64,000 nt of DNA from an uncultured Candidatus Binatia bacterium (GCA_965214755.1 OZ243979.1:3669022-3733021), one strand, 5' to 3'. Counted from the first letter of the stretch, positions 1,730 to 41,516 are shown. The notes: generated by a model not told the origin, from the sequence alone. Numbers and translations are program-made.

Positions 1730-1783
1730 AAAGAGGAAACGTGTCCACCAATCAGGCACAGAGGCTGGATACGTTTCCTCTTT
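1730..1783. repeat. Palindromic repeat element copy 1 (family consensus AAAGAGTAAACGTGTCC-N20-GGACACGTTTACTCTTT)
   Basis: aaagaggaaacgtgtccacc...ggatacgtttcctcttt; the two arms are complementary with compensatory changes; intergenic between prfB and the next gene. Confidence 0.8.
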
Positions 1784-1817
1784 CTGTCCTTGCCTGAGAC
1801 CAAGGGGTAAGCGCCTC

Positions 1818-1871
1818 AAAGAGTAAACGTGCTCTCCAACAGGCATGAGATGCTGAGCACATTCACTCTTT
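1818..1871. repeat. Palindromic repeat element copy 2 (tandem with copy 1)
   Basis: aaagagtaaacgtgctctcc...gagcacattcactcttt. Confidence 0.8.
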
Positions 1872-1885
1872 ACTAGGGGGAGACC

Positions 1886-2803
1886 ATGAACGCGCTGACG
1901 ATTGAACGAATTCCAGAACTGAACGATCCCGTCCTGATTGTCGCCTTTGCCGGCTGGAACGATGCTGGCAGTGCGGCGACGCATGCCACGCAATTCCTTA
2001 TCAAACGACTCCAGGCACGGCGTTTCGCGAAGATCGATCCTGAAGAATTTTATAATTTCAGTGAGGTCCGTCCCCACGTGCGTCTGCGAGATGGACTCTA
2101 CCGCGAGATTCGCTGGCCGGCCAACGAGTTCTTTGCGAGTAGTGCAGAGCAGCTCAAACGCAGCATGGTCCTTGGTCTGGGCATTGAGCCGCATCTCCGC
2201 TGGAAGGCGTATTCAGCGGCCTGCCTGGAGGTTGCCAAGCAATGCGGAGTACGCTTGGTGATTACCCTGGGTGCGCTCTTGGCCGATGTTGCCTACTCCA
2301 GACCGGTGCGCGTGGTCGGATTTAGCAGCGATCCCGATATTGCGACGCAACTCCAACTCACTCCGTCCCGTTACGAGGGCCCAACGGGCATCGTCGGGGT
2401 GCTGAACGATGCCTGCCGGCAGGCTGGACTGACGTCCATCAGTTTCTGGGCCAACGTGCCGCACTATATTTCCGCGTCTCCAAACCCCAAGGCGGCCCTG
2501 GCCCTCGTTAGCCGTCTCGAGTCCTTTCTCCACTTCGCCCTGGATACGACCGAGCTGGTGACCGGCGCGGCGGAGTTCGACGCCCAGGTCGCAAAGGCGA
2601 TTGCCGAGAATCCCAACCTGGCCGCCTATGTCAAGCGCCTGGAAGAACAGGAGCAGGAAGAGGGGCTGGAAATGGAGACGGCTGCTCAGGACAAAGCCGG
2701 CAACGGACACGGCAACGGCAATGGGCATGCCAATGGCAAAGATATGGCCGAAGAACTCCAGCGCTTTTTGCAGCAGCGTAAGGACCGCAAAGATGACGAG
2801 TAA
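1886..2803 (+). CDS. PAC2-family (proteasome assembly chaperone-like) protein with a C-terminal GNGH low-complexity tail
   Basis: 305 aa; LIVAFAGWNDAGSAATHA motif typical of the PAC2/DUF75 family; C-terminal GNGHGNGNGHANG encoded by a short tandem nucleotide repeat. Confidence 0.5.
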   Translation: MNALTIERIPELNDPVLIVAFAGWNDAGSAATHATQFLIKRLQARRFAKIDPEEFYNFSEVRPHVRLRDGLYREIRWPANEFFASSAEQLKRSMVLGLGIEPHLRWKAYSAACLEVAKQCGVRLVITLGALLADVAYSRPVRVVGFSSDPDIATQLQLTPSRYEGPTGIVGVLNDACRQAGLTSISFWANVPHYISASPNPKAALALVSRLESFLHFALDTTELVTGAAEFDAQVAKAIAENPNLAAYVKRLEEQEQEEGLEMETAAQDKAGNGHGNGNGHANGKDMAEELQRFLQQRKDRKDDE

Positions 2804-4307
2804 AACCCGGTCCGATCCGGACAAGTCCGTCTATCTGGTGAATCTGGGCTGTCCCAAAAATCTGGTGGATGGCGAGGTCATGCTCGGCCTGCTGGCGGAG
2901 GCGGGCTATACGCTGAGCCTTGACCCGGAACAGGCCGGGGTCCTGATGGTCAATACGTGCAGCTTTATTGATGAGGCCAAGGAAGAGTCGATTGAGACGA
3001 TCCTGGACCTGGCGGCCTATAAGGCGACGAAGACAAAGCGGAAACGTGTCCTCCAATCATCCAAAAAAGCTGGACACGTTTCCGCTTTCGAGAAACAGCT
3101 CATCGTGACCGGTTGTCTGGCCCAGCGCTACGGCCAAGAGCTGCGCGAAGTATTGCCCGAAGTGGACGTTTTTGTAGGAACGGGCGAGTTTCTGCGGATC
3201 ACCGAGATATTGGCACAGAAGCGGCGCGCGCTTGAAAAGCGGGAACGTGTCCTCCAATCATCCAAAAAGGCTGGACACGCTTCCTCTTTTGGCCCCACCC
3301 TGTATCTGGGGGCCTCCCACATCCTGCCGGACCACACCGTTCCGCGTATTCCGACCACCCATTTTTACTCGGCCTATCTCAAGGTTGCCGAGGGCTGCAA
3401 CCATAAATGCGCCTTTTGTATTATTCCGAAAATTCGCGGCTTACAGGAAAGTCGGCCGATCGCCTCTCTCGTGGAGGAGGCCACCGGACTGGTTGCGCAC
3501 GGGGTCAGAGAAATCAATCTCATTGCGCAGGACCTGACCGCCTATGGGCGAGAGCGCCGCGATGGGACAACCCTGCTCGCTCTGCTCAAATCTCTTGTGC
3601 GCGTTGAGGGTCTGGACTGGATTCGGCTGCTGTATTGCTATCCGAATTATCTTGATGAACCCCTGTTGCGTCTCATCGCTGAAGAAGAACGGGTGTGCTC
3701 GTATATTGATATGCCACTCCAGCACATCAGCGACCGGATGTTGAGGCGGATGAAGCGCGAGAAAAGTGGGGACGGCATTCGCCGCGTATTGGACCGGATT
3801 CGAGCCGCTATTCCGGGTGTGGTCTTACGCTCGTCTTTTATTGTTGGCTTTCCCGGTGAGCGGGAGGACGATTTTCAACAACTGAGCGATTTCGTGACCG
3901 AGGCAGCGCTCGACCACGTGGGGGTGTTTCGCTATTCCCAGGAGGAAGGGACGGCCGCGGGCACAATGGCCGACCAGATCAGCGAAGAGATCAAAGAAGA
4001 CCGCTGGCACAGGTTGATGGCCCGCCAGGCCGAGGTCGTGCGTAAAAAAAATATGGCGCTGGTGGGTGAGGAACGAGCGGTACTAGTCTGTGGCCAGGAC
4101 GATCACGACCGTTGGTGGGGACGGACGCAAGGCCAGGCTCCGGATATCGATGGCATCGTCTTCCTGGAACAGTGCCTGGCTGACAGCGGCGATATGATCC
4201 GCACCCGGATTACCGGGGCGTCCGGCTATGACCTGCAAGCTTTATGTCTTCCCGAACAGCCGCTTCAACAGCTCACAGCTCTTGACTTGGCCGCCGCTTC
4301 TCCCTAA
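2793..4307 (+). CDS. rimO: Ribosomal protein S12 methylthiotransferase RimO (MiaB-family radical SAM + TRAM), carrying two in-frame repeat-element insertions
   Basis: MTSKTRSDPDKSVYLVNLGCPKNLVDGEV...CNHKCAFCIIP (radical SAM CxxxCxxC)...TRAM-like C-terminus; about 60 aa longer than typical RimO because of two ~19-aa insertions (KRKRVLQSSKKAGHVSAFE and KRERVLQSSKKAGHASSFG) encoded by repeat copies 3 and 4. Confidence 0.8.
   Translation: MTSKTRSDPDKSVYLVNLGCPKNLVDGEVMLGLLAEAGYTLSLDPEQAGVLMVNTCSFIDEAKEESIETILDLAAYKATKTKRKRVLQSSKKAGHVSAFEKQLIVTGCLAQRYGQELREVLPEVDVFVGTGEFLRITEILAQKRRALEKRERVLQSSKKAGHASSFGPTLYLGASHILPDHTVPRIPTTHFYSAYLKVAEGCNHKCAFCIIPKIRGLQESRPIASLVEEATGLVAHGVREINLIAQDLTAYGRERRDGTTLLALLKSLVRVEGLDWIRLLYCYPNYLDEPLLRLIAEEERVCSYIDMPLQHISDRMLRRMKREKSGDGIRRVLDRIRAAIPGVVLRSSFIVGFPGEREDDFQQLSDFVTEAALDHVGVFRYSQEEGTAAGTMADQISEEIKEDRWHRLMARQAEVVRKKNMALVGEERAVLVCGQDDHDRWWGRTQGQAPDIDGIVFLEQCLADSGDMIRTRITGASGYDLQALCLPEQPLQQLTALDLAAASP
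3035..3089. repeat. Palindromic repeat element copy 3, in-frame inside rimO
   Basis: aaagcggaaacgtgtcctccaatcatccaaaaaagctggacacgtttccgctttc; lies entirely within the rimO reading frame without a stop. Confidence 0.8.
3235..3290. repeat. Palindromic repeat element copy 4, in-frame inside rimO
   Basis: aaaagcgggaacgtgtcctccaatcatccaaaaaggctggacacgcttcctctttt; same orientation and frame as copy 3. Confidence 0.8.
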
Positions 4308-4338
4308 GGTATCTGTCCTTTTTATCTCGACCGTGGTG

Positions 4339-4394
4339 AAAAAGGATAAACGTATCCAGCTTTTTTAGATTATTGGAGGATACGTTTATTCTTT
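4339..4394. repeat. Palindromic repeat element copy 5 (opposite orientation; arms carry a compensatory GTATCC/GGATAC change)
   Basis: aaaaaggataaacgtatccagcttttttagattattggaggatacgtttattcttt; the loop is the reverse complement of the loops in copies 3/4. Confidence 0.8.
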
Positions 4395-4406
4395 GGAGAA
4401 GGTGTC

Positions 4407-4826
4407 ATGAGAAAAACATTCCTCAAAAAAATGCGGACGACGCTCGCCGGCCAAAAACAGCAAATCCTGTTGCAGCTTGACGAAGAAATCCGAGAGGGAA
4501 AAGAGAGTGAGCTGGACGAAGGGATGGATACCTACGATCTCGCCAGCGAGGAGCGCGAACGGGAAATTCATCTGATTCTGAGTGACCGCGATCGGGACAA
4601 ACTGCAAGCCATAGAAAACGCACTGGAGCGGATCGAAGAGGGCGAATACGGCATTTGCGAAGACTGCGAAGAAGAGATCGCCCAAGCCCGTCTCGAAGCC
4701 TTGCCATTCACCAGACTGTGTATTGCCTGCCAAGAGGAACGCGAAAAGGAAGCGCGCTTTCAGCGCCGTATTGATGATGGGGGTGGATTCAGTCGGTCCA
4801 ACCTAGTTGATCTGGACGACGGGTAA
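4407..4826 (+). CDS. dksA: DksA/TraR-family C4 zinc-finger transcription factor
   Basis: 139 aa; acidic coiled-coil with DTYDLA (DxxDxA tip motif) and CEDCEEEI...CIAC zinc finger. Confidence 0.6.
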   Translation: MRKTFLKKMRTTLAGQKQQILLQLDEEIREGKESELDEGMDTYDLASEEREREIHLILSDRDRDKLQAIENALERIEEGEYGICEDCEEEIAQARLEALPFTRLCIACQEEREKEARFQRRIDDGGGFSRSNLVDLDDG

Positions 4827-4903
4827 GATCAGCCTCGCCTTTTTTCTCGGCCCATTCCGGTTGCCCGCACAAGGTGCCCCCTCTGTCGGCCCGCTGTGAT
4901 GAG

Positions 4904-6355
4904 ATGCGACCCGACGACCGACACACGCTGCTCACGGCACTCTTTTGGACGGCCATTGACGCGGTTCATCCGCGCCATCTGATCCCACAGACTGTTACGA
5001 TTGAAAAGGAACGGCTGATCGTTCGGCCACGTTCCCTCTTCGAGACCGCTGGCACGTTGACGCTCGCTCTGACGGGTCGCCTCTTCCTGATTGGGGCAGG
5101 GAAGGGGGCAGGCAGCATGGCCCAGGCGCTGATGTCCGTGCTCGGCCAGAGGAGAGAAAGAGTACGTGTGCCCTCCAACCATACAAAAAAGCAGGCCACG
5201 TGCCCTCTTTTTGGCGGCTGTATCATCATTCCGAGCGAGCAAGCGGTGTCTGAGCTGTCTCTGCCTGGAGTGCGGGTAGTGCAAGGCGAGCATCCCTTGC
5301 CTGGACCGGGCAGTGGGTACGCGACTCAAGCGCTTATGGAGAGCCTCTCCCAGACCCAACCCCACGACCTCGTCCTATTGTGTCTGACCGGCGGGGCTTC
5401 CAGTCTGCTCGTGCGCCCCGCGGTCGGGCTGACACTTTCAGACAAGACCATCACCAATGCTGTTTTATTGGAATGCGGAGCAGACATCCTGGCGCTGAAC
5501 ACCGTACGCAAACACATATCCCAGATAAAGGGCGGCTGGCTCGTGCACCACGCTCAGCCCGCGACTGTGGTCAGTCTGATTCTGTCGGACGTAATCGGTG
5601 ACGATATGAGCGTGATCGGCTCGGGCCCGACCGTCGCCGATCCAACGACGTTTATGGATGCCTGGCGGGTAGTGGAGCATTACGGCATCGCACCGCGGCT
5701 CCCTCAGTCCGTGCGTGCGCATCTGCAGAAAGGAGTCCGTGGAATCAGACCTGAGACGCCAAAACCCGGAGCCCCGATATTCTCTCGCGTCCACAATATA
5801 TTGATTGGGTCGAATCGCTTGGCCTTACAGGCTGTTCGCGAGGCTGCCGCGCACCGGGGGCTGCGCTCCCACCTGATTTCTCAGCCCCTCGCTGGTGACA
5901 CCCTCGTGGCCGGACGCGCTTTTGCCCAGACCCTGCGTACCGTTCGTCAACACTGCTCTGGCCCGACGTGCGTTCTGGCTGGTGGCGAGACAACGGTGCA
6001 GGTCCGGGGCACTGGGAAGGGAGGGCGCAATCAGGAGTTCGCGCTGACTGTCGCCCAAGAGCTCGCCGGGGAAGCCGGGTGGAGCCTGCTGAGTGCGGGA
6101 ACGGACGGCATAGATGGTCCGACCGATGCTGCCGGAGCCTTTGTGAACGGCCAGACGCTGAATCGAGCGCGTCGAAAAAATCTCGATCCCGCTCAATTTC
6201 TGCGCAATAATGACACTTATACTTTCTTTGCTGCTCTCGGTGACGTGTTTCGCCCAGGCCCAACGGGAACAAACGTGATGGACATTAAAATTGCGCTTGT
6301 GTATCCTCCCGGCGCTGAAGAGTGCTCCGGCAAAAAAGAACAGAACAGAGAGTAG
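4904..6355 (+). CDS. Glycerate 2-kinase / hydroxypyruvate reductase-like protein (MOFRL family) with an in-frame repeat-element insertion
   Basis: LIGAGKGAGSMAQAL, DVIGDDMSVIGSGPT, GGETTVQVRGTGKGGRNQEFAL motifs; alternative start at 4874; insertion RRERVRVPSNHTKKQATCPLFGG is encoded by repeat copy 6. Confidence 0.65.
   Translation: MRPDDRHTLLTALFWTAIDAVHPRHLIPQTVTIEKERLIVRPRSLFETAGTLTLALTGRLFLIGAGKGAGSMAQALMSVLGQRRERVRVPSNHTKKQATCPLFGGCIIIPSEQAVSELSLPGVRVVQGEHPLPGPGSGYATQALMESLSQTQPHDLVLLCLTGGASSLLVRPAVGLTLSDKTITNAVLLECGADILALNTVRKHISQIKGGWLVHHAQPATVVSLILSDVIGDDMSVIGSGPTVADPTTFMDAWRVVEHYGIAPRLPQSVRAHLQKGVRGIRPETPKPGAPIFSRVHNILIGSNRLALQAVREAAAHRGLRSHLISQPLAGDTLVAGRAFAQTLRTVRQHCSGPTCVLAGGETTVQVRGTGKGGRNQEFALTVAQELAGEAGWSLLSAGTDGIDGPTDAAGAFVNGQTLNRARRKNLDPAQFLRNNDTYTFFAALGDVFRPGPTGTNVMDIKIALVYPPGAEECSGKKEQNRE
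5155..5212. repeat. Palindromic repeat element copy 6, in-frame inside the glycerate-kinase-like gene
   Basis: agaaagagtacgtgtgccctccaaccatacaaaaaagcaggccacgtgccctcttttt. Confidence 0.75.
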
Positions 6356-6367
6356 AGAGAGTGGGGC

Positions 6368-6718
6368 ATGCCTCGTCGCCTGTTGTTACGCGGAGTGGCG
6401 GCTTTTAATGCGGGCCGCTTCTTCGATGCGCATGAAATCTGGGAAGTGCTCTGGAATGAGACGATTGGCGAAGAGAAACGCTTTGTCCAAGGGCTTGTGC
6501 AGTTGGCTGCCGGCTACCTCAAGCTTTCCAGCGCTCAGTATCCAGGCGCTCTCAAACTGCTCACGCGCGGTTGCCAGACCTTGCAGACCTATCCACCACT
6601 ATATGCCGGAATCCAGGTCAGCCTGCTGTCTGACGCCAGTCTCACCGTTATCCACCAACTGGAAACGGGGAGGACGGATACAGACATTCAGCCCCCGCAA
6701 ATCCAAACTGTTCCATAA
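6368..6718 (+). CDS. DUF309-domain protein
   Basis: FNAGRFFDAHEIWEVLW...QGLVQLAAGYLKL pattern typical of DUF309. Confidence 0.5.
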   Translation: MPRRLLLRGVAAFNAGRFFDAHEIWEVLWNETIGEEKRFVQGLVQLAAGYLKLSSAQYPGALKLLTRGCQTLQTYPPLYAGIQVSLLSDASLTVIHQLETGRTDTDIQPPQIQTVP

Positions 6719-6738
6719 GAACTCTCGATTCTCGTATT

Positions 6739-6762
6739 CTGAATGGGCATTCAGTCAGTTTT
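6739..6762 (+). terminator. Putative rho-independent terminator after the DUF309 gene
   Basis: ctgaatgggcattcag hairpin followed by tcagtttttc T-run. Confidence 0.35.
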
Positions 6763-6764
6763 TC

Positions 6765-6791
6765 TTGACAAAACCCAAGCGTCAATAGTAT
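6765..6791 (+). promoter_or_regulatory. Putative sigma70-like promoter (TTGACA, ~15-nt spacer, TAGTAT) upstream of the kinase gene
   Basis: ttgacaaaacccaagcgtcaatagtat; -35 is perfect, spacing suboptimal. Confidence 0.25.
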
Positions 6792-6840
6792 GACTGTATG
6801 TCTGGACAGTACGAGGATGGAGTGGAAAAGGTTGAGGCCG

Positions 6841-7899
6841 ATGTCCGAAGAAGTCTGCATGGCCGTCTATACTCCCCTTGACCGTAAAGCAGTTAATCGC
6901 CTCGTCAAAGACTATGGATTAGGGCGTTTGTCGACCATTCAGGGCATCTCTGCCGGATCGGTGAACACCCATTATTGCCTTGAGGCAGCGAAGGGAAAAT
7001 TCATTCTACGGATTGATGAGGTCAAAGACACCAGCGACGCGCAACGCGAAATCGACTTCCTGCTCTTTTTGCGTAAACATGGCTTCCCGTGTCCACGGCC
7101 GATGGCCGATAAAAACGGCTCCTATCTTCAGCCCTACGAAAAGAAGGCGGTCTCAATCTATCGCCATCTGTCCGGCAAAGACTTCTCGGCCGCAACGCTC
7201 ACCGATGATCATATAGAAAAGATTGGACAGACCCTGGCCCGACTCCATATCATTGGCCAGGAATATGATACCCCGATCAGAAACCGGTTTGCTTTTGACC
7301 GCGTACGCAGTATTTATCAAAACCTGCGCGGCCGTATTGCGGTCCATCTGAAGCATATCGGCCACGTCCTGGATGATGAAATCGCGCATCAGGAAGAATA
7401 TCGAGAGGAAAAGCTGCCAAAAGGTATGATCCACGGAGACCTCTTTCCTGATAACGTCCTGTTTCGTGGTGGGAGGGTCGTTGGTGTGCTCGACTTTGAA
7501 GCGGCCTGTTTTGGAAAGTTCATTGCTGACCTGGCCACTGCTGTCAACGCTATGTGCTATCACGAGGAGCGCTACCATATTGGCCGGTTCAATGCCCTCC
7601 TTGACGGTTATCAGTCCGAACGTACGCTTTCGCTGGCCGAGTGGGATGCCTTTCCGAATGAACTCCGCTTTTCCGCTTTCCGCTTTACCCTGACCCGGCT
7701 GCGTGATTTCTTCTTTCGCCATATAGATGAAAAACGACGGGTGAATAAGGATTATCGGGAATTCTTTCACCGTCTCAGAATCCTCCGCCGGGAGCGGAGC
7801 GGTGGGATGGACCAGATGCTCCTCACGATGGCAACCGGATATGATTACCGTAAGTATCAAAAGATCCCTGCGGAGGAAAAAGGCGTGAACGCCTCATGA
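6841..7899 (+). CDS. Homoserine kinase type II / aminoglycoside-phosphotransferase-fold kinase
   Basis: MAVYTPLD...; IHGDLFPDNVLF and LDFEAACFGKFIADLA motifs of the APH/ThrB-type-II family; start uncertain (6790, 6841 or 6859). Confidence 0.6.
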   Translation: MSEEVCMAVYTPLDRKAVNRLVKDYGLGRLSTIQGISAGSVNTHYCLEAAKGKFILRIDEVKDTSDAQREIDFLLFLRKHGFPCPRPMADKNGSYLQPYEKKAVSIYRHLSGKDFSAATLTDDHIEKIGQTLARLHIIGQEYDTPIRNRFAFDRVRSIYQNLRGRIAVHLKHIGHVLDDEIAHQEEYREEKLPKGMIHGDLFPDNVLFRGGRVVGVLDFEAACFGKFIADLATAVNAMCYHEERYHIGRFNALLDGYQSERTLSLAEWDAFPNELRFSAFRFTLTRLRDFFFRHIDEKRRVNKDYREFFHRLRILRRERSGGMDQMLLTMATGYDYRKYQKIPAEEKGVNAS

Positions 7900-7917
7900 T
7901 CTGTCCGGTACAGGAAA

Positions 7918-7973
7918 CGAAGAGGAAACGTGTCCAGCTTTTTTGTCTGATTGGAGGACACGTTCACTCTTTG
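7918..7973. repeat. Palindromic repeat element copy 7
   Basis: gaagaggaaacgtgtccagcttttttgtctgattggaggacacgttcactcttt. Confidence 0.8.
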
Positions 7974-8018
7974 CCCACCCCTGCGCCCTGACCGCATTGC
8001 GGAGACATCCAGACCACT

Positions 8019-9515
8019 GTGTTTTCAAAGATACTCATTGCAAACCGAGGTGAGATCGCCACTCGTATCGCTCGGACCTGTCGCGAAATGGATATTACGA
8101 CAGTGGCCGTGTACTCGGAGGCTGACCGTTCTTCACCCCATCTGTATGCGGCAGACGAGGCTGTGTGCGTGGGGCCGGCCCAGGCAAGCGAGAGCTATCT
8201 CAACGTGGAGTCTATCCTGGCCGTGGCCCGCCGGACCGGAGCCGACGCGGTCCATCCAGGGTATGGCTTTTTATCGGAGAATGCAACATTTGCTCGGGCC
8301 GTGGCTGATGCCGGTCTGACCTTTATCGGTCCTGCTCCAGATGCCCTGTCTGCGGTTGGAAATAAGATTGTTGCGCGCCGGACCGTGGCTCAACTCGGCG
8401 TTCCGGTGATTCCCGCCCTCGAAGACCCGGCGACCGACCCTGAGACTGTACGGGAGCAAGTTGCCGCACTCGGCTACCCCCTCTTGATTAAAGCAGCTGC
8501 GGGTGGGGGCGGTAAAGGAATGCGTATTGTGCGCCAGGAGGCCGAGTTGGTTGACGCCTTGTCCGCGGCGCAACGCGAAGCCGAAGCCGCCTTTGCCGAA
8601 GGCACGGTGTATGTCGAGCGTTTTCTCGAACGTCCACACCATGTGGAAGTCCAGATTCTTGGTGACACCGCCGGCAACATCGTCCATCTTGGCGAACGGG
8701 AGTGCTCCATTCAGCGCCGCTATCAAAAAATAGTCGAAGAGACCCCCTCGCCAGCCGTGTCCGAGTCCTTGCGGCAGGAGATGACGAGGGCCGCGCTGAC
8801 TGTGGCCAGGGCTGCGGGTTATGACAACGCCGGAACCGTAGAGTTCATCCTCGACAACGCCGGGAAATTCTATTTCCTGGAAGTCAACGCCCGTCTCCAA
8901 GTTGAGCATCCGATTACCGAGTGGATTACTGGTCTGGACCTGGTGCACGAACAAATTCGGATTGCCGCCGGAGAAACGCTGGGCTTCCAGCAAGACGACA
9001 TCTACCGTAATGGCCACGCCCTTGAGTGCCGTCTGTATGCGGAAGATGCCGCCCACGGGTTCCTGCCGTCACCCGGACATGTCCTGGCCTGGCATGCGCC
9101 CCAGGGGCCAGGAGTGCGGGTTGACTCCGGGGTCGAGTCGCAGACCGAGGTCCCGATATACTACGATCCCATGATTGCCAAGATTTCGACCTGGGGAGCG
9201 GACCGTGAACAAGCCCGGCGACGCATGGCCGGGGCGCTTCGTCAAACGGCAATTCTGGGACTCACGACCAATCTGCCTTTTTTGATTGAGCTCATGGACC
9301 ACCCTGCCTTTGCCGCCGGCGATACCCACACCGGCTTTCTGCCCGAGCATTTTCCGAACTGGCAGCCTGGCGAGCAGCCGCATACGCTTGCTGCCGCTTT
9401 GGCCGCCAGCCTGCACCGCGGTCCATATCGAAACGCTGATGGACAGACCGCTCTGCCCTCGCAGGACCCCTCGACACCGTGGCGACAGCTTGGCGGCTGG
9501 CGCCTCGGCTCCTGA
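8019..9515 (+). CDS. Biotin carboxylase subunit of an acyl-CoA carboxylase (BC domain + start of BT region)
   Basis: MFSKILIANRGEIATRIARTCREMDI...HPGYGFLSENA...ATP-grasp...EHPITE; 498 aa. Confidence 0.85.
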   Translation: MFSKILIANRGEIATRIARTCREMDITTVAVYSEADRSSPHLYAADEAVCVGPAQASESYLNVESILAVARRTGADAVHPGYGFLSENATFARAVADAGLTFIGPAPDALSAVGNKIVARRTVAQLGVPVIPALEDPATDPETVREQVAALGYPLLIKAAAGGGGKGMRIVRQEAELVDALSAAQREAEAAFAEGTVYVERFLERPHHVEVQILGDTAGNIVHLGERECSIQRRYQKIVEETPSPAVSESLRQEMTRAALTVARAAGYDNAGTVEFILDNAGKFYFLEVNARLQVEHPITEWITGLDLVHEQIRIAAGETLGFQQDDIYRNGHALECRLYAEDAAHGFLPSPGHVLAWHAPQGPGVRVDSGVESQTEVPIYYDPMIAKISTWGADREQARRRMAGALRQTAILGLTTNLPFLIELMDHPAFAAGDTHTGFLPEHFPNWQPGEQPHTLAAALAASLHRGPYRNADGQTALPSQDPSTPWRQLGGWRLGS

Positions 9516-9540
9516 TACCCGAATGATTCTGAAACGACTC

Positions 9541-9594
9541 AAAGAGTAAACGTGTCCTCCACTAGACATGATATGCTGGACACGTTTACTCTTT
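9541..9594. repeat. Palindromic repeat element copy 8, between the BC ORF and the BT/BCCP ORF
   Basis: aaagagtaaacgtgtcctccactagacatgatatgctggacacgtttactcttt. Confidence 0.85.
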
Positions 9595-10121
9595 CTGAAA
9601 TGAAGACCTTCCTCTATGCCGCGGGTGAAGAACTGGTGCTGGAGTATAACCAACACGGCGAGCGCGACGATCTGTACGAGCTTGTCTGGAACGGCCAGAC
9701 TCAGCAACCGGCACACGTGGTCGCTATCCGGGATGGTACGATCACCTTCCTGGTTGATGGTCTCCCTCTTCATGCCTATGTGGTCCGGGATGGTGACCGC
9801 AGCCTGATATCCATCGAGGGGCGGACCTACGAATTCAATCACACTCCACCTCAGCACACCCGAGCCCGTCAGCGGGGGACGAGTGGAAGCTTTGAGCCTG
9901 AGATCCGCTCTCCCATGCCAGGGAAAATTCTCAACGTCAAAGTCGTCGAAGGCGAGGTTGTAGGAGACGGCCAAACCCTCGTGCTCCTCGAAGCGATGAA
10001 AATGGAGAATGCGCTGACTGCCGAGGGGAATGCCCGGGTGGCAACCATCCATGTGGCCGACGGAGACCTTGTCGAGCTTGGTCAGGTTCTGGTCGAGCTT
10101 GAGCCAATCGAAGCAGAGTAA
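9552..10121 (+). CDS. Biotin carboxyl carrier (biotinyl domain) protein with an N-terminal BT-like region; the annotated start lies within repeat copy 8
   Basis: C-terminal EAMKMEN biotinylation motif; the N-terminal ~100 aa resemble the BT-domain hairpins of PCC/MCC alpha subunits; true start may be 9573 or 9601. Confidence 0.65.
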   Translation: MSSTRHDMLDTFTLSEMKTFLYAAGEELVLEYNQHGERDDLYELVWNGQTQQPAHVVAIRDGTITFLVDGLPLHAYVVRDGDRSLISIEGRTYEFNHTPPQHTRARQRGTSGSFEPEIRSPMPGKILNVKVVEGEVVGDGQTLVLLEAMKMENALTAEGNARVATIHVADGDLVELGQVLVELEPIEAE

Positions 10122-10138
10122 GCCCAGTGAACGTACTC

Positions 10139-11053
10139 TCAGTCGAGTTGGGAACCTATCTGAAGCCCGATATGCCGAGCGAGCTCGTCAGCGGCGATCT
10201 TTCCCTGCTCACCGCGAAGCTTTTTGGCGACGACCGTGCCACCGTTCAGGGCAATACTGACCGTCCCACCCCCAAGAGCGACCACTTGGCCTGGGGTTGC
10301 TGATCCGCCAGTCGGCTGCAGGCGACAGTCATACAAACGAATTTTCTGTCCGCGCCATGTTGTTGATGCGCCGGGCTGCGGGTCGCAACCGCGAATATGA
10401 TCAAAGACGGCGTGTGCTGGCTTAGACCAGTCAATGCCAGCATGTTCGTCCCGACACAACGGATCGTAATTGGCCTGGGATTCGTCTTGGACAATGCGCG
10501 GCGGACTGCCGGCTTGAATCAGATCGATCGCTTCGCCAGCGGCCTCAATACCGAGCGGGAAGAGTTTGTTGAAATACAGGGTTCCGGTTGTATCTTCCGG
10601 GCCAATTTCGACTTCTTTTTGAAGCAGTATCGGACCGGTATCAATGCCCTCGTCTACCCAGAACCAGGAGATCCCGGTCTTTTTCTCACCATTGATCAGG
10701 GTCCAGTTAATCGCACTCCCACCACGATACTTGGGTAAGAGTGACGGGTGAAAACAGATACTGCCGAGTTTGGGTGCGTTGAACACTGGAGGCGGAACAA
10801 TTTGGGTCACAAATGCCAATACGGCGAGGTCAGCGTCGAGTTCCTGAAATTTCTCCAGGACCTCAGGGCCCTTCATGGAGCGGTGTTGATACACGGGAAT
10901 GTCGAGTTCCCCTGCCCGCTTTTTGACCGGATCAAACTTTCCTTCGATTCTGTCCGGGGGGCAGAACACCGCCGGGATGTCCTGACCCTTGTCGCGGAGC
11001 TTATCGAGCGTTTTTTCCGCAAACGCGGCTTGACCGATGAGAATGATACGCAT
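10139..11053 (-). CDS. Formyltransferase-family protein (methionyl-tRNA formyltransferase-like)
   Basis: HPSLLPKYRGGSAINW and DTGPILLQ motifs of the formyl-transferase fold plus a C-terminal Fmt-like domain. Confidence 0.55.
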   Translation of the reverse strand: MRIILIGQAAFAEKTLDKLRDKGQDIPAVFCPPDRIEGKFDPVKKRAGELDIPVYQHRSMKGPEVLEKFQELDADLAVLAFVTQIVPPPVFNAPKLGSICFHPSLLPKYRGGSAINWTLINGEKKTGISWFWVDEGIDTGPILLQKEVEIGPEDTTGTLYFNKLFPLGIEAAGEAIDLIQAGSPPRIVQDESQANYDPLCRDEHAGIDWSKPAHAVFDHIRGCDPQPGASTTWRGQKIRLYDCRLQPTGGSATPGQVVALGGGTVSIALNGGTVVAKKLRGEQGKIAADELARHIGLQIGSQLD

Positions 11054-20600: not shown

Positions 20601-21071
20601 CCGGGTAATATGGTTGGCCCCGAGTACGAAAAGACCGCTCTGGTGCGTCACTGCTGTCGCATGTTTGTGACCGGTGCGAGCCTGACCGTGCCGTTCTTCA
20701 CCATCGTGTTGCGAAAATCGTATGGACTCGGCGCGCAGGGGATGGCCGGGGGGAGCTTCAAAGCCCCGGCTTTTGCGGTGTCCTGGCCAACGGGTGAGTT
20801 CGGGGGCATGGGGCTGGAGGGCGCGGTGAAGCTGGGTTACCGCAAGGAGTTGGAGGCGGAGACGGCCCCGTATAAGCGCAAGGAACTCTACGAACAACTC
20901 GTTGCCAAGATGTATGAAAGCGGCAAGGCGCTCAGCACCGCAACTTATTTTGAAATTGATGACGTAATTGATCCTGCCGAGTCTCGACGCTGGATTATGG
21001 CCGCCCTGCGCTCCTCGCCTCCGCCCGTTCCCCGTACGGAGAAAAAACGGCCGTGTATTGATACGTGGTGA
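17658..21071 (+). CDS. Single-chain biotin-dependent acyl-CoA carboxylase (BC-BCCP-carboxyltransferase fusion, LCC-like)
   Basis: 1137 aa; N-terminal BC (LIANRGEIAIRVARAA...), central biotinyl motif IMESMKMEH, C-terminal carboxyltransferase domain (GGGRPGDTD...GITSGRCFAGNAV...). Confidence 0.8.
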   Translation: MVEMSLTSLLIANRGEIAIRVARAAAELGIRTVAIFSEDDAQSLHTQKTDEALPLQGRGAAAYLDIEQILALAEQAGCDAIHPGYGFLSENAEFARRCAEAGMTFVGPQVETLALFGDKGQARTLAERCEVPVLPGTSGPTSVDEAQEFLTSLGADGAVMIKALAGGGGRGMRAVQAGDDLEAAYARCQSEATAAFGNGDVYVEQLIPRARHIEVQVVGDGSGAVSHLGERECSIQRRNQKLVELAPSPGLSSALRARLTTAAVRLAREVYYASLGTFEFLVDAEHGSDNAIFAFIEANARLQVEHTVTEEVTGVDLVKAQLHLAGGSSLADLGLTQERIPEPRGFAMQVRINMETIASDGAPRPSGGTLAAFEVPSGPGLRTDTFGYVGYTTSPSFDSLLAKLVGSSPSSDFSDVVTRTYRALCEFKIEGVATNIPFLQSLLRHPAFVKNQLYTRFVEDHSAELIRADHHQRFFFHTDQTQPEAPALAGVKVDSIDPLAVLEHGRSADPTATVAMTPVGHAPEVSGPDGTVAVPAPLQGTIVSLDVSEGDEVHVGQQLLIMESMKMEHVISTETSGIIRQLTVSQGDAVFEGHPLAFIEEIEVEMTAVEKAAELDLDYIRPDLAEIVERHELGMDAARPEAVARRRKTGQRTARENIYDICDPDSYVEYGPMVIAAQRQRRSLDDLIRRTPADGMIAGVGSVNGDLFDEKAAQCIVISYDYTVLAGTQGFKNHYKKDRMFELAERWKLPVVFFAEGGGGRPGDTDWSSPSGLDVPAFYLWGKLSGMVPLVGITSGRCFAGNAVILGCCDVIIATAGSNIGMGGPAMIEGGGLGVFRPEEVGPMEEQVPNGVVDIPVTDEAEAVQVAKQYLSYFQGPVAEWNCADQRLLRYIVPENRLRIYEVRDVIEILADTGSVLEIRKHFGIGMVTSFVRIEGRPVGVIANNPKHLGGAIDSDAADKATRFMQLCDAFDIPILMLCDTPGNMVGPEYEKTALVRHCCRMFVTGASLTVPFFTIVLRKSYGLGAQGMAGGSFKAPAFAVSWPTGEFGGMGLEGAVKLGYRKELEAETAPYKRKELYEQLVAKMYESGKALSTATYFEIDDVIDPAESRRWIMAALRSSPPPVPRTEKKRPCIDTW

Positions 21072-25088: not shown

Positions 25089-25143
25089 AAAGAGTAAACG
25101 TGCCAACAGCTATGCATGATACGGACGGCACGTCTACTCTTTC
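25089..25143. repeat. Palindromic repeat element copy 9
   Basis: aaagagtaaacgtgccaacagctatgcatgatacggacggcacgtctactctttctg. Confidence 0.75.
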
Positions 25144-26600: not shown

Positions 26601-27600
26601 TGCGCGAGCCACGTTTCTGAAACCGGCGAACCGCGCGATTATGATCCGCAAGCCGGGAAGAGAATACGTGTGTGCCATCTCCCCGAGCAACAAAATAGAG
26701 GTAGTCCGTTTCGGCTGGGGAGAGGACGGCTTGAATAGCCGCGAGTCCCGGGTTGGCAATCGGGCCAGGCGGAAGGCCAGTAAACAGATAGGTATTATAC
26801 GGCGTGGGCGTCCGTAGATGGCGACGGGTGATATTCCCGTCAAAGTTCGGAATGCCATAGATGACGGTTGGATCACACTGGAGTGGAATATTTTGCCGGA
26901 GCCGATTGTGAAAGACTCCGGCAATCAGCGGACGTTCCTCTGCCGCCCCGGTTTCTTTCTCAATGAGCGAGGCCAAGGTCAGGACCTCATGCCGGGAGAA
27001 CCCCAACTCTTGGGTCTGTTGTTGCATGGCCGGGGTGAAGACTTCGGACAGACGTGTGACCATACGTCCCAGAATATCAGCCGCAGAGCTTTGCTTTGAA
27101 AAAAAATAGGTGTCCGGGTACAGGTAACCTTCAAGTCCGTATTCCTGGAGGTCCCATCTGGCTAAGAACTGAGCAGAGGTGCTCAGAGACAGGAATTGCT
27201 CTTGGGGGCCCAACCCCTGGTCTTCCAGTCTTTTGGCAATTTGTTTGAGTGTCAGTCCTTCCGGGATCATAACCATGTGGTGGATGACCTGACCTTGGGT
27301 CAATGTCTCAAGCAACCTCCGCGGGGTCAGCGGGGTTTCCAGGAGATACTCCCCACTCTGTATGGAATGGTCTTTGCCTGTGAATTGCGCCCAGAAACGA
27401 AATGGCTGAACGCTTGCCAGGATGCCTTCGACAACAAGCATCTGCGCCGTCTGTTGGAGAGTACTGCCCGGAGAGATAAAGATTCGAGCAGGAGCCGCTA
27501 AAGACGGGCCTGGTGTGTTGAGCCGGGCATAGACGTAACAGGCGGTGAGTCCGCTGACGCCAATGACAAGCCACGCGGTGAGAGGCAGAACTTTTTTCAC
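26593..27600 (-). CDS. mltG: Endolytic murein transglycosylase MltG (YceG family)
   Basis: C-terminal YLYFVARGDGTHVFSSRLADHNRAV; likely GTG start near 27600 (VKKVLPLTAWLVIGV TM helix); the ORF track extends to 27735. Confidence 0.65.
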   Translation of the reverse strand: MKKVLPLTAWLVIGVSGLTACYVYARLNTPGPSLAAPARIFISPGSTLQQTAQMLVVEGILASVQPFRFWAQFTGKDHSIQSGEYLLETPLTPRRLLETLTQGQVIHHMVMIPEGLTLKQIAKRLEDQGLGPQEQFLSLSTSAQFLARWDLQEYGLEGYLYPDTYFFSKQSSAADILGRMVTRLSEVFTPAMQQQTQELGFSRHEVLTLASLIEKETGAAEERPLIAGVFHNRLRQNIPLQCDPTVIYGIPNFDGNITRRHLRTPTPYNTYLFTGLPPGPIANPGLAAIQAVLSPAETDYLYFVARGDGTHVFSSRLADHNRAVRRFQKRGSRNG

Positions 27601-29294: not shown

Positions 29295-29693
29295 ATGCTG
29301 TCCCATACGGAAAAACTTCGGGTTCGGTGGGTCGACACTGATGCGTCGGGTCGCATTCATTACACAGCAGCGTTCCGGTATTTTGAGATAGCCGAGTGGG
29401 AATTGATGCGGCAGGCCGGGTTCCCGTTGTCCGATCACCGCAAAATATCAGGGCTGCCGCGGGTGAACGTCTCGGCAACATTTTATGCTCCCCTCTGTGT
29501 CGATGAACCGATTGAGGTAAAGGTCTGGGCTGAGCGGATTGGGACCACCTCCATTACCTTTGCCGGGGAAATCCACCGAGCCGGAGAGCGCTGCGTCAGT
29601 GGGTTGATTACCGCGGTTTTTGTGAATCCGCAGGACCAGCCTCAGCCCATTCCCGAGGCCGTTCGCCATGCTCTGAGCGCTGCGAAAGAGTAA
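29295..29693 (+). CDS. Acyl-CoA thioesterase (hotdog / 4HBT family); stop codon supplied by repeat copy 10
   Basis: RVRWVDTDASGRIHYTAAFRYFEIAEWELMRQAG. Confidence 0.7.
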   Translation: MLSHTEKLRVRWVDTDASGRIHYTAAFRYFEIAEWELMRQAGFPLSDHRKISGLPRVNVSATFYAPLCVDEPIEVKVWAERIGTTSITFAGEIHRAGERCVSGLITAVFVNPQDQPQPIPEAVRHALSAAKE

Positions 29694-29738
29694 ACGTGTC
29701 CAGCTGTGTAGCGGTAGAGAAGGACACCTTTATTCTTT
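29685..29738. repeat. Palindromic repeat element copy 10
   Basis: aaagagtaaacgtgtccagctgtgtagcggtagagaaggacacctttattcttt; its AAAGAG-TAA supplies the last two codons and the stop of the thioesterase gene. Confidence 0.75.
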
Positions 29739-33941: not shown

Positions 33942-33962
33942 CATGCCAATAGGCTCTGACGT

Positions 33963-36668: not shown

Positions 36669-36725
36669 TAAAGAGTACACGCGCCCTCCAAACCATACAA
36701 AGCTGTTGGCACGCTTACTCTCTCA
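36669..36725. repeat. Palindromic repeat element copy 11 (degenerate arms)
   Basis: aaagagtacacgcgccctccaaaccatacaaagctgttggcacgcttactctctc. Confidence 0.65.
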
Positions 36726-38353: not shown

Positions 38354-39619
38354 ATGCCAGAACAGGGACAGGATCGATACTCCCAAACGGTGTGCCTGAA
38401 CCAACGGGCCTACGCCTTCCCGCATCGGCCTGTAGTCGTGATCTGTATAGACGGGTGCGATCCAGCTTATATCAAGACCGGGCTGGCCCAGAACATTCTA
38501 CCCAACATCCAGCGCTTTCTCACCCAAGGGTTTGGCACTTGGGCGGACGCGGTCGTCCCAACGTTTACGAATCCGAACAACCTGTCCATTGTCACGGGCA
38601 GTCCGCCCGCCGTGCATGGGATTTCGGGGAATTACTTTCTTGATCCGACAACAGGACAGCCGGTCATGATGACCGATCCCCGCCAACTCCGCTCAGAAAC
38701 CCTGCTGGCGCGCTTCTCCCACAGCGGGGCCAAAGTCATCGTCATCACCGCCAAAGAGAAACTGCGCCGTTTACTTGGCCACGGCATCGCCGACGGGATG
38801 TGTTTCTCTGCCGAAAAAGCGGAGGAGTGTACCATCCCCGTGCATGGTATTGAGAACGTGTGTCAGCGGCTTGGTCGTCCACAGCCCGCCGTCTACTCTG
38901 CCGAGCTGTCACTTTTTGTCTTGGAAGCCGGCCTCGCCCTGCTCGAACAACACCGACCGGATCTGATGTATCTCTCGCTGAGCGACTACGTCCAACATAA
39001 ACATGCGCCGGGGAGTGCAGAAGCGAACGCGTTCTATGCCGCGCTTGACCGGGCGTGCGGTCAGCTGGCTCAGGCAGGAGCCTTGGTCGCCCTCGCCGCC
39101 GACCATGGGATGAACGCCAAACCGCGGGTCGTATTTCTCCAGGATATCCTGGACACGAGTTGCGGTCAGGGCAAGACACGCGTGATCTGCCCGATTACCG
39201 ACCCCTACGTAGCCCATCATGGTGCCTTGGGGTCCTGTGTCCGCGTCTACTGTCCTGGTACGGACCGGGCTGCCGTGCGGGCTATCATCGCAAACATTCC
39301 TGGGGTTGAGGCGGTCTATGAGAGGCCCACCGCGTGTGCACAGTTTTGCCTGCCGCCCGACCGTGAGGCTGATCTCCTTGTACTTGGCGATCAACTCACG
39401 GCCGTTGGTGCGGCAGAACGAGACCATGATTTGTCCGGGTTAGGAGGTACGCCGCTCCGCTCTCATGGCGGACGCGCGGAACAGGTGGTGCCATTCATTC
39501 TTTCTGAGCCCGTCTCCGAGGCGTACCATACCCGCGCGGCAACCGTTCGGCCCAGCAACTTTGACCTGTTCGACTACGCTTTGAATGGGACAAAAAGAGT
39601 AAACGTGCCAACCGTTTGA
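38354..39619 (+). CDS. Alkaline-phosphatase-superfamily hydrolase (phosphonoacetate hydrolase / nucleotide pyrophosphatase-like); C-terminus and stop encoded within repeat copy 12
   Basis: VVICIDGCDPAYI...TFTNPNNLSIVTGSPPAVHGISGNYF (AP-superfamily metal-site motifs). Confidence 0.55.
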   Translation: MPEQGQDRYSQTVCLNQRAYAFPHRPVVVICIDGCDPAYIKTGLAQNILPNIQRFLTQGFGTWADAVVPTFTNPNNLSIVTGSPPAVHGISGNYFLDPTTGQPVMMTDPRQLRSETLLARFSHSGAKVIVITAKEKLRRLLGHGIADGMCFSAEKAEECTIPVHGIENVCQRLGRPQPAVYSAELSLFVLEAGLALLEQHRPDLMYLSLSDYVQHKHAPGSAEANAFYAALDRACGQLAQAGALVALAADHGMNAKPRVVFLQDILDTSCGQGKTRVICPITDPYVAHHGALGSCVRVYCPGTDRAAVRAIIANIPGVEAVYERPTACAQFCLPPDREADLLVLGDQLTAVGAAERDHDLSGLGGTPLRSHGGRAEQVVPFILSEPVSEAYHTRAATVRPSNFDLFDYALNGTKRVNVPTV

Positions 39620-39646
39620 TCTGTTTGGAGGCGCGTTTACTCTTTT
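39593..39646. repeat. Palindromic repeat element copy 12 (opposite orientation)
   Basis: aaaaagagtaaacgtgccaaccgtttgatctgtttggaggcgcgtttactctttt; its left arm encodes the last residues (KRVNVPTV) and TGA of the upstream gene. Confidence 0.75.
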
Positions 39647-39723: not shown

Positions 39724-40356
39724 ATGGATGTCTCAGGCGTGGTGCAGCAACTGTCCATTTGGGGACTACCGGTCCTTGTGGCGGTTATCCTGCACGAACT
39801 CGCGCATGGCTATAGCGCCTATCTGTTAGGAGACCCGACCGCCGCCCGAATGGGCCGACTGACCCTGAATCCGCTTGCCCATATCGATCTGTTTGGAACC
39901 CTCTTGTTACCCTTCCTGCTGATCATGACTGGCGCGCCGTTTCTGTTTGGCTATGCCAAGCCCGTTCCCGTAAACTTTACGAATCTGCGTAACCCCCGGC
40001 GAGACATGGTGCGCGTGGCCGCGGCTGGTCCGATTATGAACCTGATATTAGCCGGGCTGTCCGCCTTTGCGCTGAAGTTCCTGCTGTCCTTACAACTCAT
40101 CACCGATGGACTGGTCGCCCGCAGCCTGTTGGCGAGTGTCCTGATCAATGTTGTACTGGCCGTCTTTAATTTATTTCCGCTCCCGCCGCTCGACGGCGGG
40201 CGAGTCGCCACGGGACTGCTGCCGCGGCAACCGGCTCTGGCGCTCGCCAAGCTTGAGCCCTATGGCATGTTGATTGTGATCCTGCTGTTGATGACCGGGA
40301 TTCTTAGCGACCTGCTCCAACCGCTGACGCTATTCGTCCTCAGCACGCTCCTGTGA
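39724..40356 (+). CDS. Site-2 protease family (M50) membrane metalloprotease
   Basis: HELAHG zinc motif; polytopic membrane protein. Confidence 0.7.
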   Translation: MDVSGVVQQLSIWGLPVLVAVILHELAHGYSAYLLGDPTAARMGRLTLNPLAHIDLFGTLLLPFLLIMTGAPFLFGYAKPVPVNFTNLRNPRRDMVRVAAAGPIMNLILAGLSAFALKFLLSLQLITDGLVARSLLASVLINVVLAVFNLFPLPPLDGGRVATGLLPRQPALALAKLEPYGMLIVILLLMTGILSDLLQPLTLFVLSTLL

Positions 40357-40366
40357 GATTTTCTTC

Positions 40367-41392
40367 ATGACCGACAACACAACGACGCGACAAACGATTG
40401 TGAGTGGATTTCGTCCAACCGGTAAGCTTCATCTTGGGCATTTACACGGCACGCTCACCAACTGGGTCCGGCTCCAGAGCGAGTACCGGTGTTTTTTCTT
40501 CGTGGCTGACTGGCACGCCCTGACCACCGGGAAGACCGATGCCGCAAGCATTCGGAGCAATACCGAAGAGATGGTAATTGACTGGTTGAGCGTTGGACTC
40601 AACCCAGCCCAGTCTGTGATTTTTCGTCAGTCCGATGTGAAAGAGCACGCCGAGCTGCACCTCTTGTTTTCGATGATTACACCGACGCCGTGGCTGATTC
40701 GGAACCCCACCGTCAAAGAGCAAGCGCGTGAGCTGGGTTTCATCGACTCCGATGATGAAGCCGCGGTGACCACGATTCACTATGGTCTGCTCGGTTATCC
40801 CGTGCTCCAGGCTGCCGACATCCTGATGTATAAGGCGCAACGGGTTCCCGTCGGGGTCGATCAGGTTCCGCATATTGAGCTGACCCGCGAGATTGCTAGG
40901 CGCTTTAATGCGGTCTATGAGGCCGGCATCTTTCCTGAGCCCCGGGCCCTGCTGACGGAGATTCCAAAAATTCTTGGCGTTGACGGCCGTAAGATGAGCA
41001 AGAGCTATGGCAACGCGGTCGTCCTGTCAGACCCGCCGCAAGAGGTCGATACGAAGCTGTCACGAATGATGACCGACCCGCGTCGGGCGCGGCGGCGCGA
41101 CCCTGGCGACCCAGCCGACTGCCCGGCTTTTCACCTGCACCGCCTCTACTGCACGCCGGAAGAAATCGAGTTTGTCACGAACGGGTGTAAAACAGCGGAC
41201 ATTGGCTGTCTTGAATGTAAGAAGATTATGATCAAGCATGTGCTTGACGATCTGGCCCAATTCAGGGAAAAACGAAAGTACTGGGAAAACCACCGCGGCG
41301 ATGTGCGCGACGTCCTCCGGGAAGGGGAACGCCAGGCTCATGAAATCGCCCGTCAAACCATGGCGGAGGTACGGGAGGTGGTTGGTGTGTAA
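40367..41392 (+). CDS. trpS: Tryptophanyl-tRNA synthetase
   Basis: SGFRPTGKLHLGHLHG (HIGH) ... KMSKS. Confidence 0.95.
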   Translation: MTDNTTTRQTIVSGFRPTGKLHLGHLHGTLTNWVRLQSEYRCFFFVADWHALTTGKTDAASIRSNTEEMVIDWLSVGLNPAQSVIFRQSDVKEHAELHLLFSMITPTPWLIRNPTVKEQARELGFIDSDDEAAVTTIHYGLLGYPVLQAADILMYKAQRVPVGVDQVPHIELTREIARRFNAVYEAGIFPEPRALLTEIPKILGVDGRKMSKSYGNAVVLSDPPQEVDTKLSRMMTDPRRARRRDPGDPADCPAFHLHRLYCTPEEIEFVTNGCKTADIGCLECKKIMIKHVLDDLAQFREKRKYWENHRGDVRDVLREGERQAHEIARQTMAEVREVVGV

Positions 41393-41459
41393 GCTGGCGG
41401 AAGGGGCAGGCCACGAGAGTTGGTGAGACGGTGCCGGCCCTCCCTTTTTGCCACATGGG

Positions 41460-41516
41460 AAAAAGAGTCGACACGCTAGCAGCTTTGCATGACTTGGAGA
41501 GTGTGTTGACTCTTTA
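41460..41516. repeat. Palindromic repeat element copy 13 (degenerate)
   Basis: aaaagagtcgacacgctagcagctttgcatgacttggagagtgtgttgactcttta. Confidence 0.6.

Follow-up and report, generated by a model that had tools for sequence, protein, structure and literature searches.

A family of 54-nucleotide hairpin-forming repeats, probably mobile or once mobile, in uncultured Candidatus Binatia bacteria

A repeated palindrome among the genes of the window

The stretch of 64,000 nucleotides (nt) analysed here, referred to as the window, belongs to the chromosome of an uncultured Candidatus Binatia bacterium (OZ243979.1:3669022-3733021). Arm search and profile search reveal in it 14 copies of a 54-nt palindromic element, all located within the first 41.5 kb. 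We argue that these copies probably represent a family of short, hairpin-forming DNA elements that are, or once were, mobile.

In the 54-nt unit a 20-nt loop, whose conservation is limited to its edges (TCCA...GCT), separates the 17-nt arm AAAGAGTAAACGTGTCC from the complementary arm GGACACGTTTACTCTTT. With up to 3 mismatches allowed, the arm consensus matches the window 21 times against 0.07 expected from shuffled sequence, and the matches pair as inverted arms with 20 nt between them. A profile made from 12 of the window copies recovers the same 12 strongly and adds two degenerate ones, at 5157-5210 (E=3.5e-5) and at about 41462-41515 (E=0.12). The latter was confirmed by reading the sequence: its arms AAAGAGTCGACACGCT and AGTGTGTTGACTCTTT are complementary at 14 of 16 positions. 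The loop reads TCCA...GCT on the plus strand in eight copies and is reversed in six.

An earlier note on this DNA had reported 13 or more copies of 17-nt complementary arms around a loop of about 20 nt, present in both orientations, and the count of 14 and its layout bear this out. The compensatory arm variants that it described are also present, GTATCC/GGATAC in copy 4341 and GGAAAC/GTTTCC in copy 1730. The spacing of 88 to 20144 nt, the palindromic units and the mixed orientation agree with its view that this is not a CRISPR array. It recognised no described family, and no Rfam match is found. It saw no copy in the last 22 kb, where the profile search past 41.5 kb indeed gives no credible one.

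Nine copies lie in the first 10 kb and five between 25 and 41.5 kb, all amid conserved housekeeping genes, with none in the 10-25 kb interval nor beyond the tRNA-Met gene at 43.66 kb. They have diverged from one another (median identity 65%), and the window has no second repeat family of note. The earlier note placed each copy at the boundary of a gene or within one. This is correct but says too little of what the copies do there, namely insertion in frame within coding sequence and donation of stop codons. The copies are given below in order, with the strand on which the loop reads TCCA...GCT. L001, on a 4.9-Mb contig with the gene order of the window, and L002, on a 6.04-Mb contig of a more distant relative, are syntenic loci used for comparison.

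59-112, plus: in frame inside lnt (apolipoprotein N-acyltransferase, CN_hydrolase); old and decayed; peptide KRQPVLPSDGKAMDADSF
1730-1783, plus: intergenic, between prfA (RF-1) and a PAC2-family gene
1818-1871, plus: intergenic, 14 nt upstream of the start of the PAC2 gene
3035-3088, plus: in-frame insert of 18 codons in rimO (site 1), in the N-terminal UPF0004 domain; peptide KRKRVLQSSKKAGHVSAF
3236-3289, plus: in-frame insert of 18 codons in rimO (site 2), in the linker before the radical-SAM domain; peptide KRERVLQSSKKAGHASSF
4341-4394, minus: intergenic, between rimO and dksA; loop inverted relative to the orthologous copies of L001 and L002
5157-5210, plus: degenerate in-frame insert of 18 codons in a glycerate-kinase-like gene (DUF4147/MOFRL), read in the second open frame; peptide RVRVPSNHTKKQATCPLF
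7919-7972, minus: intergenic, between an APH-family kinase gene and accC (biotin carboxylase)
9541-9594, plus: between accC and accB (biotin carboxyl carrier protein); perfect stem
25089-25142, minus: flanked by two minus-strand genes; the one upstream (25134-26924) stops on the TAG of the arm (25134-25136) and the one downstream codes for a MoxR-like AAA ATPase
29685-29738, minus: the TAA of the arm (29691-29693) is the stop of a thioesterase gene (29295-29693); upstream of rplU
36670-36723, plus: intergenic, between fabH-like and ketoacyl-synthase genes, both on the minus strand
39594-39645, minus: 52 nt long; overlapped by the last eight codons and the stop of a phosphodiesterase gene (38354-39619); upstream of an M50 peptidase gene
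41462-41515, minus: degenerate, abutting the start codon of scpA (41516); weak profile match

Distribution in related DNA

The further copies that a search elsewhere should find for a real family are plentiful. A scan with the pattern GCTGGACACGTTTNCNCTTT, with one genome per species, matched at least 113 stretches; the 80 loci listed among them come from roughly 20 metagenome-assembled genomes (MAGs) and carry the label Candidatus Binatia, apart from three that share a chromosome labelled Thermodesulfobacteriota. This chromosome (OZ219926.1, with loci L015, L034 and L072) is the closest syntenic relative of the window and carries the same repeat as the Candidatus Binatia MAGs; the labels are inconsistent. 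A second, independent pattern matched 45 stretches of unlabelled metagenome contigs and none in viral contigs, on which ground a viral origin was rejected.

The window, L001 and L002, 113 genome loci and 45 metagenome loci form a sample of 1.38 Mb, to which the results below refer. It contains 265 profile matches, 244 of them near full length, at 145 independent sites. Copy length peaks at 54 nt, lengths of 53 and 55 nt being also common. With the one copy that selected each locus subtracted, the density would correspond very roughly to a few hundred copies per genome. The first 41 kb of the window are several-fold denser in copies than this. An exact look-up of window protein returned no recorded sequence. 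Homologues of the window RimO-like protein reach at most 91% identity; one of them is encoded on the L001 contig and a more distant one on that of L002. These genomes may derive from sponges; several papers on Binatota concern sponge microbiomes.

Filled and empty sites

At three positions of the window, DNA alignments of orthologous loci pair a filled with an empty allele, and the whole difference between them is the 54 nt that run from AAAG to CTTT. Site 1 of rimO is empty in L162, L163 and L002 (junction AAGAC/CGAGAA), and site 2 is empty in L162 and L002 (CTTGA/TGG). Between prfA and the PAC2-family gene, copy 1730 is identical in L001 and the site is empty in L002 (GCGAC/CTGTC). The search for target-site duplications that the earlier note had advised came out negative: there is none at these three clean sites, and flanking direct repeats of 2-5 nt are not above chance at 146 sites. 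The element thus enters the chromosome as a precise 54-bp block and does not duplicate its target.

Other window copies also differ in their presence among relatives. Copy 1818 is not found at this position in L001 or L002; ahead of its own PAC2 gene L162, too, carries a pair of copies. The insert at 5157 is missing from L001, L002, L162 and L163, and is therefore specific to the lineage of the window. Copies 7919 and 9541 are not present in L001, whose spacer at the latter position is 18 nt long. At the other extreme, the copy in lnt has decayed orthologues at the same site in L001 (7323) and L002 (7377), and its fold is lost (z = -0.7).

The sequences around the insertions share a signature. 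Read towards the element at 108 independent sites, A is rare at -6 (3%) and at -3 (6%), G is found at -5 in 53% and C at -4 in 46%, and the pattern is mirrored on both sides (p 1e-8 to 1e-16). Neither flank is complementary to the other, and the stem does not extend into them. In the clean pairs the empty alleles keep the same flanks as the filled ones, so that the signature looks like a property of the insertion site and not of the element. It could express the target preference of an enzyme or the survivorship of insertions.

Copies at gene ends

In its third frame each arm reads AAA GAG TAA. At 17 sites, with 22 copies, the neighbouring gene takes its stop codon from arm positions 7-9, and a stop codon lies within or abuts the first 9 nt in about 51 of 176 copies. 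In the window the arm supplies the stop of the genes ending at 29693 and, on the minus strand, at 25134. Between tandem genes the copy is close to the upstream one, with a median of 0-9 nt from the upstream stop to the copy and 16-32 nt from the copy to the downstream start.

Copies in frame inside genes

The length of 54 nt equals 18 codons, and four window copies are in-frame inserts, which goes beyond what the earlier note had seen: one lies in lnt, two in rimO and one in the glycerate-kinase-like gene. In the whole sample, 20 of 145 independent sites are at least 40 codons inside called genes, which is 14% versus about 85% of coding DNA; such intragenic counts are approximate, as the gene calls come from a custom codon-usage caller. 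At these deep sites the length is divisible by three in 19 of 20, versus 63% of all copies. Copies are retained only where harm is small.

The deep intragenic copies also share the plus loop orientation in 19 of 20 sites and use two frames (10 and 9 sites). Peptides from one frame are of the type K[RS]KRVLQSSKKAGHVSSF, those from the other of the type RVNVSSN..(E)MLDTFTL. Copy 5157 and about half of the intragenic sites are read in the second open frame. Both loop orientations offer similar numbers of open frames, so the orientation bias does not come from stop codons. Peptides of the plus orientation are more hydrophilic, and the minus orientation would put GGAGG into the mRNA; either feature may account for the bias.

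The host genes code for unrelated housekeeping proteins. Besides those of the window, they include AlaRS, MnmG (two inserts), an AddB-like nuclease, a Mrp antiporter subunit, MltA, BamD, a CoA-transferase and a TolC-like protein. RimO is the most instructive case. Its orthologues, which are more than 85% identical, are 468, 486 or 504 amino acids (aa) long, corresponding to 0, 1 or 2 inserts, and the two 18-residue blocks come and go independently in the alignment. Some relatives have in-frame deletions of 2 or 4 residues inside a block. Pfam finds the UPF0004 domain of the window protein about 19 residues longer than the profile, and Thermotoga maritima RimO (4JC0) has neither 18-residue segment. 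The AlphaFold model of the two-insert RimO is poor (mean pLDDT 59) and supports nothing beyond low confidence at insert 1. In the window the RimO frame most likely begins 11 nt ahead of the point where the PAC2-family gene upstream of it stops (2793-2803), an overlap that is identical in the called genes of L001, L002, L162 and L163.

The glycerate-kinase-like gene was entered independently in L162 (5146-5197), at another site than in the window and with the loop in reversed orientation (peptide KEGTYPAFLDNWRTRSLS). This insert uses the frame in which TAA normally stands, here in its G variant. In L074 (6602-6656) and L065 (1610-1664) a 55-nt copy lies inside a called open reading frame (ORF) of 424 aa without Pfam match, whose frame would switch from B to A within the element; the explanation is a miscalled gene, a pseudogene or a frameshift that was compensated.

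The hairpin, its covariation and its decay

Intact copies are predicted to fold far better than shuffled sequences, at -17 to -19 kcal/mol as DNA (z about -8 to -9) and at -25 to -28 kcal/mol as RNA. The 17-bp stem is perfect in 41 of 110 copies. Just above it stand two conserved mismatches, T.T (98/110) and C.C (92/110), followed by a C-G pair. Since these mismatches are the only features telling the two strands apart, they hint at recognition of a folded single strand.

The arms co-vary, as the earlier note had stated. Among 41 copies that had not been selected by the search pattern, 89.9% of stem cells are paired versus 37-59% in controls with a slid register, and 10 of 17 stem pairs have changed on both sides. 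Cells with a double change number 44 versus 15.6 in shuffles, a value reached in none of 500 shuffles. In the full set of loci the fixed right-arm pattern used for selection lowers the apparent divergence of the arms.

Changes that occurred in place give a different picture. Orthologous copies recognised by matching flanks form 40 groups, and in 9 of them the loop is opposite between genomes with identical boundaries. Copy 4341 belongs to this class, its flanks and boundaries matching the orthologues of L001 and L002, as does copy 36670, whose orthologue in L038 (4088) carries a flipped loop; in the pair L113/L115 the flipped loop is the exact reverse complement. Inversion of the loop in place fits these data better than repeated insertion at the same nucleotide, and could proceed by recombination or template switching between the arms. 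In 595 comparisons of orthologous stem pairs, one side alone has changed 54 times, with loss of pairing in 37. The same comparisons yield 9 double changes, 6 of which keep pairing, where 2.2 doubles are expected by chance; an example is C:G versus A:T at position 5/50 between window copy 3035 and its counterpart in L001 (10243). Once copies are inserted, decay mostly dominates over compensation.

The earlier note had read the covariation as a sign of selection on the hairpin structure, such as an RNA stability element; a role of this kind at every locus is not supported. More broadly, the host could keep the structure locally as an mRNA 3' stabiliser, an operon regulator or a BIME-like nucleoid or topoisomerase site, mobility being incidental or absent. 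Stable hairpins with co-varying arms, a strong enrichment of copies at gene 3' ends and within operons, and the conservation of some orthologous copies across several genomes are in keeping with such a role. We nevertheless hold it to be quite improbable. Copies come and go as exact 54-nt units between near-identical orthologous loci, they stand in frame in many unrelated genes (at least 20 in-gene sites), their loop flips freely, most in-place changes break pairing, and the oldest copy, in lnt, is unfolded. The large loop, the lack of a T-run and the lack of an Rfam match do not suit a local RNA element either. A terminator scan of window positions 1-10200, which hold nine copies, flags none of them, the loop being 20 nt long and the tail only TTT, and the copies were thus rejected as intrinsic terminators. 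At the gathering score only a tRNA is found by Rfam in the window. At E<=1 the sole overlap with a copy in positions 1-10200 is RF04341 at 7921-7969, a chance-level match (24.1 bits versus a gathering score of 53.1, E=0.68). Taken together, gain and loss of whole units, in-frame copies, loop flips and pair-breaking changes suggest that covariation reflects a requirement for propagation and not a local RNA function. The hairpin seems to be needed for spread.

Nature of the element and search for its enzyme

We privilege the hypothesis, which we consider likely, that the repeat is a family of 54-bp hairpin-forming, non-autonomous DNA elements, mobile or once mobile, confined to uncultured Candidatus Binatia bacteria of a single lineage. 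Its copies are tolerated in three kinds of place: at or just past the end of a gene, where the TAA of either arm is able to stop the frame; between the genes of an operon; and inside a gene, where a length multiple of three and an open frame add an 18-residue, mostly hydrophilic peptide. After insertion, copies mostly decay and their loops can invert in place. The arms would stay complementary across the family since only foldable copies get recopied, and templated correction of one arm by the other possibly contributes to the covariation. The active fold would probably be a single-stranded DNA hairpin with the T.T and C.C mismatches above its stem. Copying could be the work of an enzyme acting in trans, as proposed for REPINs and for elements of the IS200/IS605 type.

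Several observations weigh against this hypothesis. The window codes for no transposase or integrase detectable by Pfam in most of its substantial ORFs, which are housekeeping and metabolic genes instead. A tblastn search of 1.0-1.38 Mb with E. coli RayT and a Binatia RAYT-like protein returns a single gene, in L011, flanked by a different repeat. No longer element with matching ends exists in the 1.38 Mb, where solo arms number three and partial matches are edge truncations or covarying terminal variants (AATGAG/CTCATT). Neighbouring copies do not enclose a recurrent ORF, all-against-all blastp giving syntenic orthologues only. No active transposition was observed and the window copies are diverged, so that in this genome the family may have died out. 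The comparisons of filled and empty alleles at 7919 and 9541 carry about 12 and 15 extra nucleotides, respectively; clean insertion of 54 nt is thus not universal. The flank signature could arise in part from which insertions survive, not from where an enzyme inserts. Finally, the copies were sampled by fixed sequence patterns and from related genomes among others, and their counts do not equal genome-wide frequencies.

The RAYT-like gene of L011 (OZ244620.1, a Candidatus Binatia MAG) occupies positions 166-834 on the minus strand and codes for a protein of 222 aa with HVHVL (HUH) and YIENNPV motifs. Within positions 1-1250 it is bordered on both sides by tandem clusters of another, GC-rich repeat (…TGCGGGCTGGAAGCCCGCNCTCCCAG…). 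This looks like a classical system of RAYT and repetitive extragenic palindromes (REPs) that exists beside the 54-nt family; its GC-rich REP (GCGGGCTGGAAGCCCGC) was not found in the window.

The existence of such a protein with an HUH motif in Binatia genomes brings in the explanation that the repeat is a REPIN in the strict sense, that is, two inverted REPs moved by a RAYT encoded once per genome. Inverted arms around a spacer, the long hairpin and the compensatory changes are as described for REPINs (PMC3116915), and the absence of target duplication resembles single-strand transposition of the IS200/IS605 type. We find this explanation unlikely. The sole RAYT-like gene seen in the sample adjoins the GC-rich REP and not the 54-nt element, and the consensus of the 17-nt arm contains no internal inverted repeat beyond ACGT. 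Moreover, 14% of sites are deep in genes whereas REPs are extragenic by definition, and the insertion-site signature is two-sided and symmetric instead of a one-sided tetra- or pentanucleotide.

Lack of a longer relative bears also on a classical miniature inverted-repeat transposable element (MITE), a derivative of an insertion sequence (IS) that has lost internal parts, keeps the matching terminal inverted repeats and depends on a DDE transposase for its movement. The element is small, interspersed and insertion-polymorphic, has terminal inverted repeats, and its weak, symmetric consensus at the target is reminiscent of what some DDE transposases prefer. Against this, the target-site duplication is missing both at the three clean sites and statistically, no longer element shares its ends, and solo arms are limited to the three mentioned. 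In addition, the inverted repeats account for nearly all of the element, and the loop shows conservation at its edges alone. A classical MITE is, in our view, very improbable. The earlier description as 'REP/MITE-like' holds insofar as the family is interspersed and real; strict membership of either REPINs or MITEs fails. An integron attC or cassette array was also considered and rejected, as orientations are mixed and flipping, the flanks are syntenic housekeeping genes, copies lie inside genes and the window has no integrase.

A bolder version of the mobile-element hypothesis invokes a mechanism new to bacterial repeats. An enzyme would recognise the folded 54-nt hairpin with its conserved T.T/C.C mismatches and insert it flush, with no duplication, at a 12-bp target of weakly palindromic sequence (A missing at -6 and at -3, GC at -5/-4, and the mirror image on the opposite flank). 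The built-in stop codons and the two hydrophilic open frames would be adaptations to coding DNA, and some of the 18-residue inserts could have gained a function in their host proteins. We offer it as a speculation of low probability.

Other features of the window

The tRNA-Met gene (43664-43739) marks a border between the conserved housekeeping genes that bear the copies and accessory metabolic genes free of them. The part to its right may be a flexible region or an island, and one may guess that this copy-free tail is younger DNA. Its genes code for a permease, an amidase, a DMFase-like protein and luciferase-like oxidoreductases. Positions 59971-61959 form an islet of low GC content (0.47 versus about 0.57) with genes for a DUF4145 protein, an ORF without Pfam match and, on the opposite strand, an N6_N4 DNA methylase; this may be a restriction-modification or defence islet. 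Positions 17658-21071 hold a single ORF of 1137 aa that fuses biotin carboxylase, biotin carrier and carboxyltransferase domains, 8 kb from the separate accC and accB.

Relation to known repeats and significance

Mobile palindromic GC clusters and hairpin elements of mitochondria and plastids are tens of bp long, GC-rich, and occur also inside coding regions. The 54-nt family recalls them and differs in host, GC-richness and sequence. It resembles bacterial MITEs such as Correia, ERIC, RUP and BOX in being short and interspersed, with terminal inverted repeats and sometimes in-frame fusions or gene ends. Unlike them it causes no target-site duplication, has no parent IS in the 1.38 Mb and is much smaller.

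REPINs are composed of two inverted conserved halves that form a hairpin with compensatory changes, number hundreds of copies, persist vertically and show no obvious target duplication (PMC3116915). The 54-nt family has in common with them the hairpin of inverted arms and spacer and the compensatory changes, as well as copy numbers in the hundreds, vertical persistence in a lineage and the lack of obvious target duplication. It differs in that its arms are not self-palindromic REPs, copies lie in genes, the RAYT seen is tied to another REP, and the unit is about half the size of a REPIN.

RPEs, the palindromic elements restricted to Rickettsia, are interspersed palindromes of about 100-150 bp that occur between genes and in frame inside unrelated housekeeping genes, where they encode a conserved peptide and leave the host gene intact, with no transposase (PMC10969869). 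The 54-nt element is likewise a palindrome with a stable hairpin, in frame in unrelated genes (the 468, 486 and 504 aa forms of RimO, 20 deep sites), for which no transposase was found. It differs from RPEs as these are described: it measures 54 bp or 18 codons, it belongs to MAGs of the Candidatus Binatia lineage, its 17-bp stem is almost perfect, TAA in both arms ends genes, the loop is frequently inverted and the flank signature is symmetric. The literature searched contains no description of this 54-nt family. It is a new family of a previously described type, whose closest analogues are RPEs and REPINs.

Colonisation of essential genes by in-frame palindromes has been regarded as a peculiarity of Rickettsia, and the movement of RPEs is not established (PMC10969869). 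The 54-nt family is an independent and much smaller case, and the lineage that carries it is another one and uncultured. Complete chromosomes from several relatives show many filled, empty and flipped alleles, which opens movement, the missing duplication, the flank signature and the tolerance of proteins to comparative analysis. In practical terms, start and stop codons located within the repeat will lead gene callers astray, and the repeat inflates the apparent variation of protein length among orthologues. It could also serve in strain typing of these bacteria.

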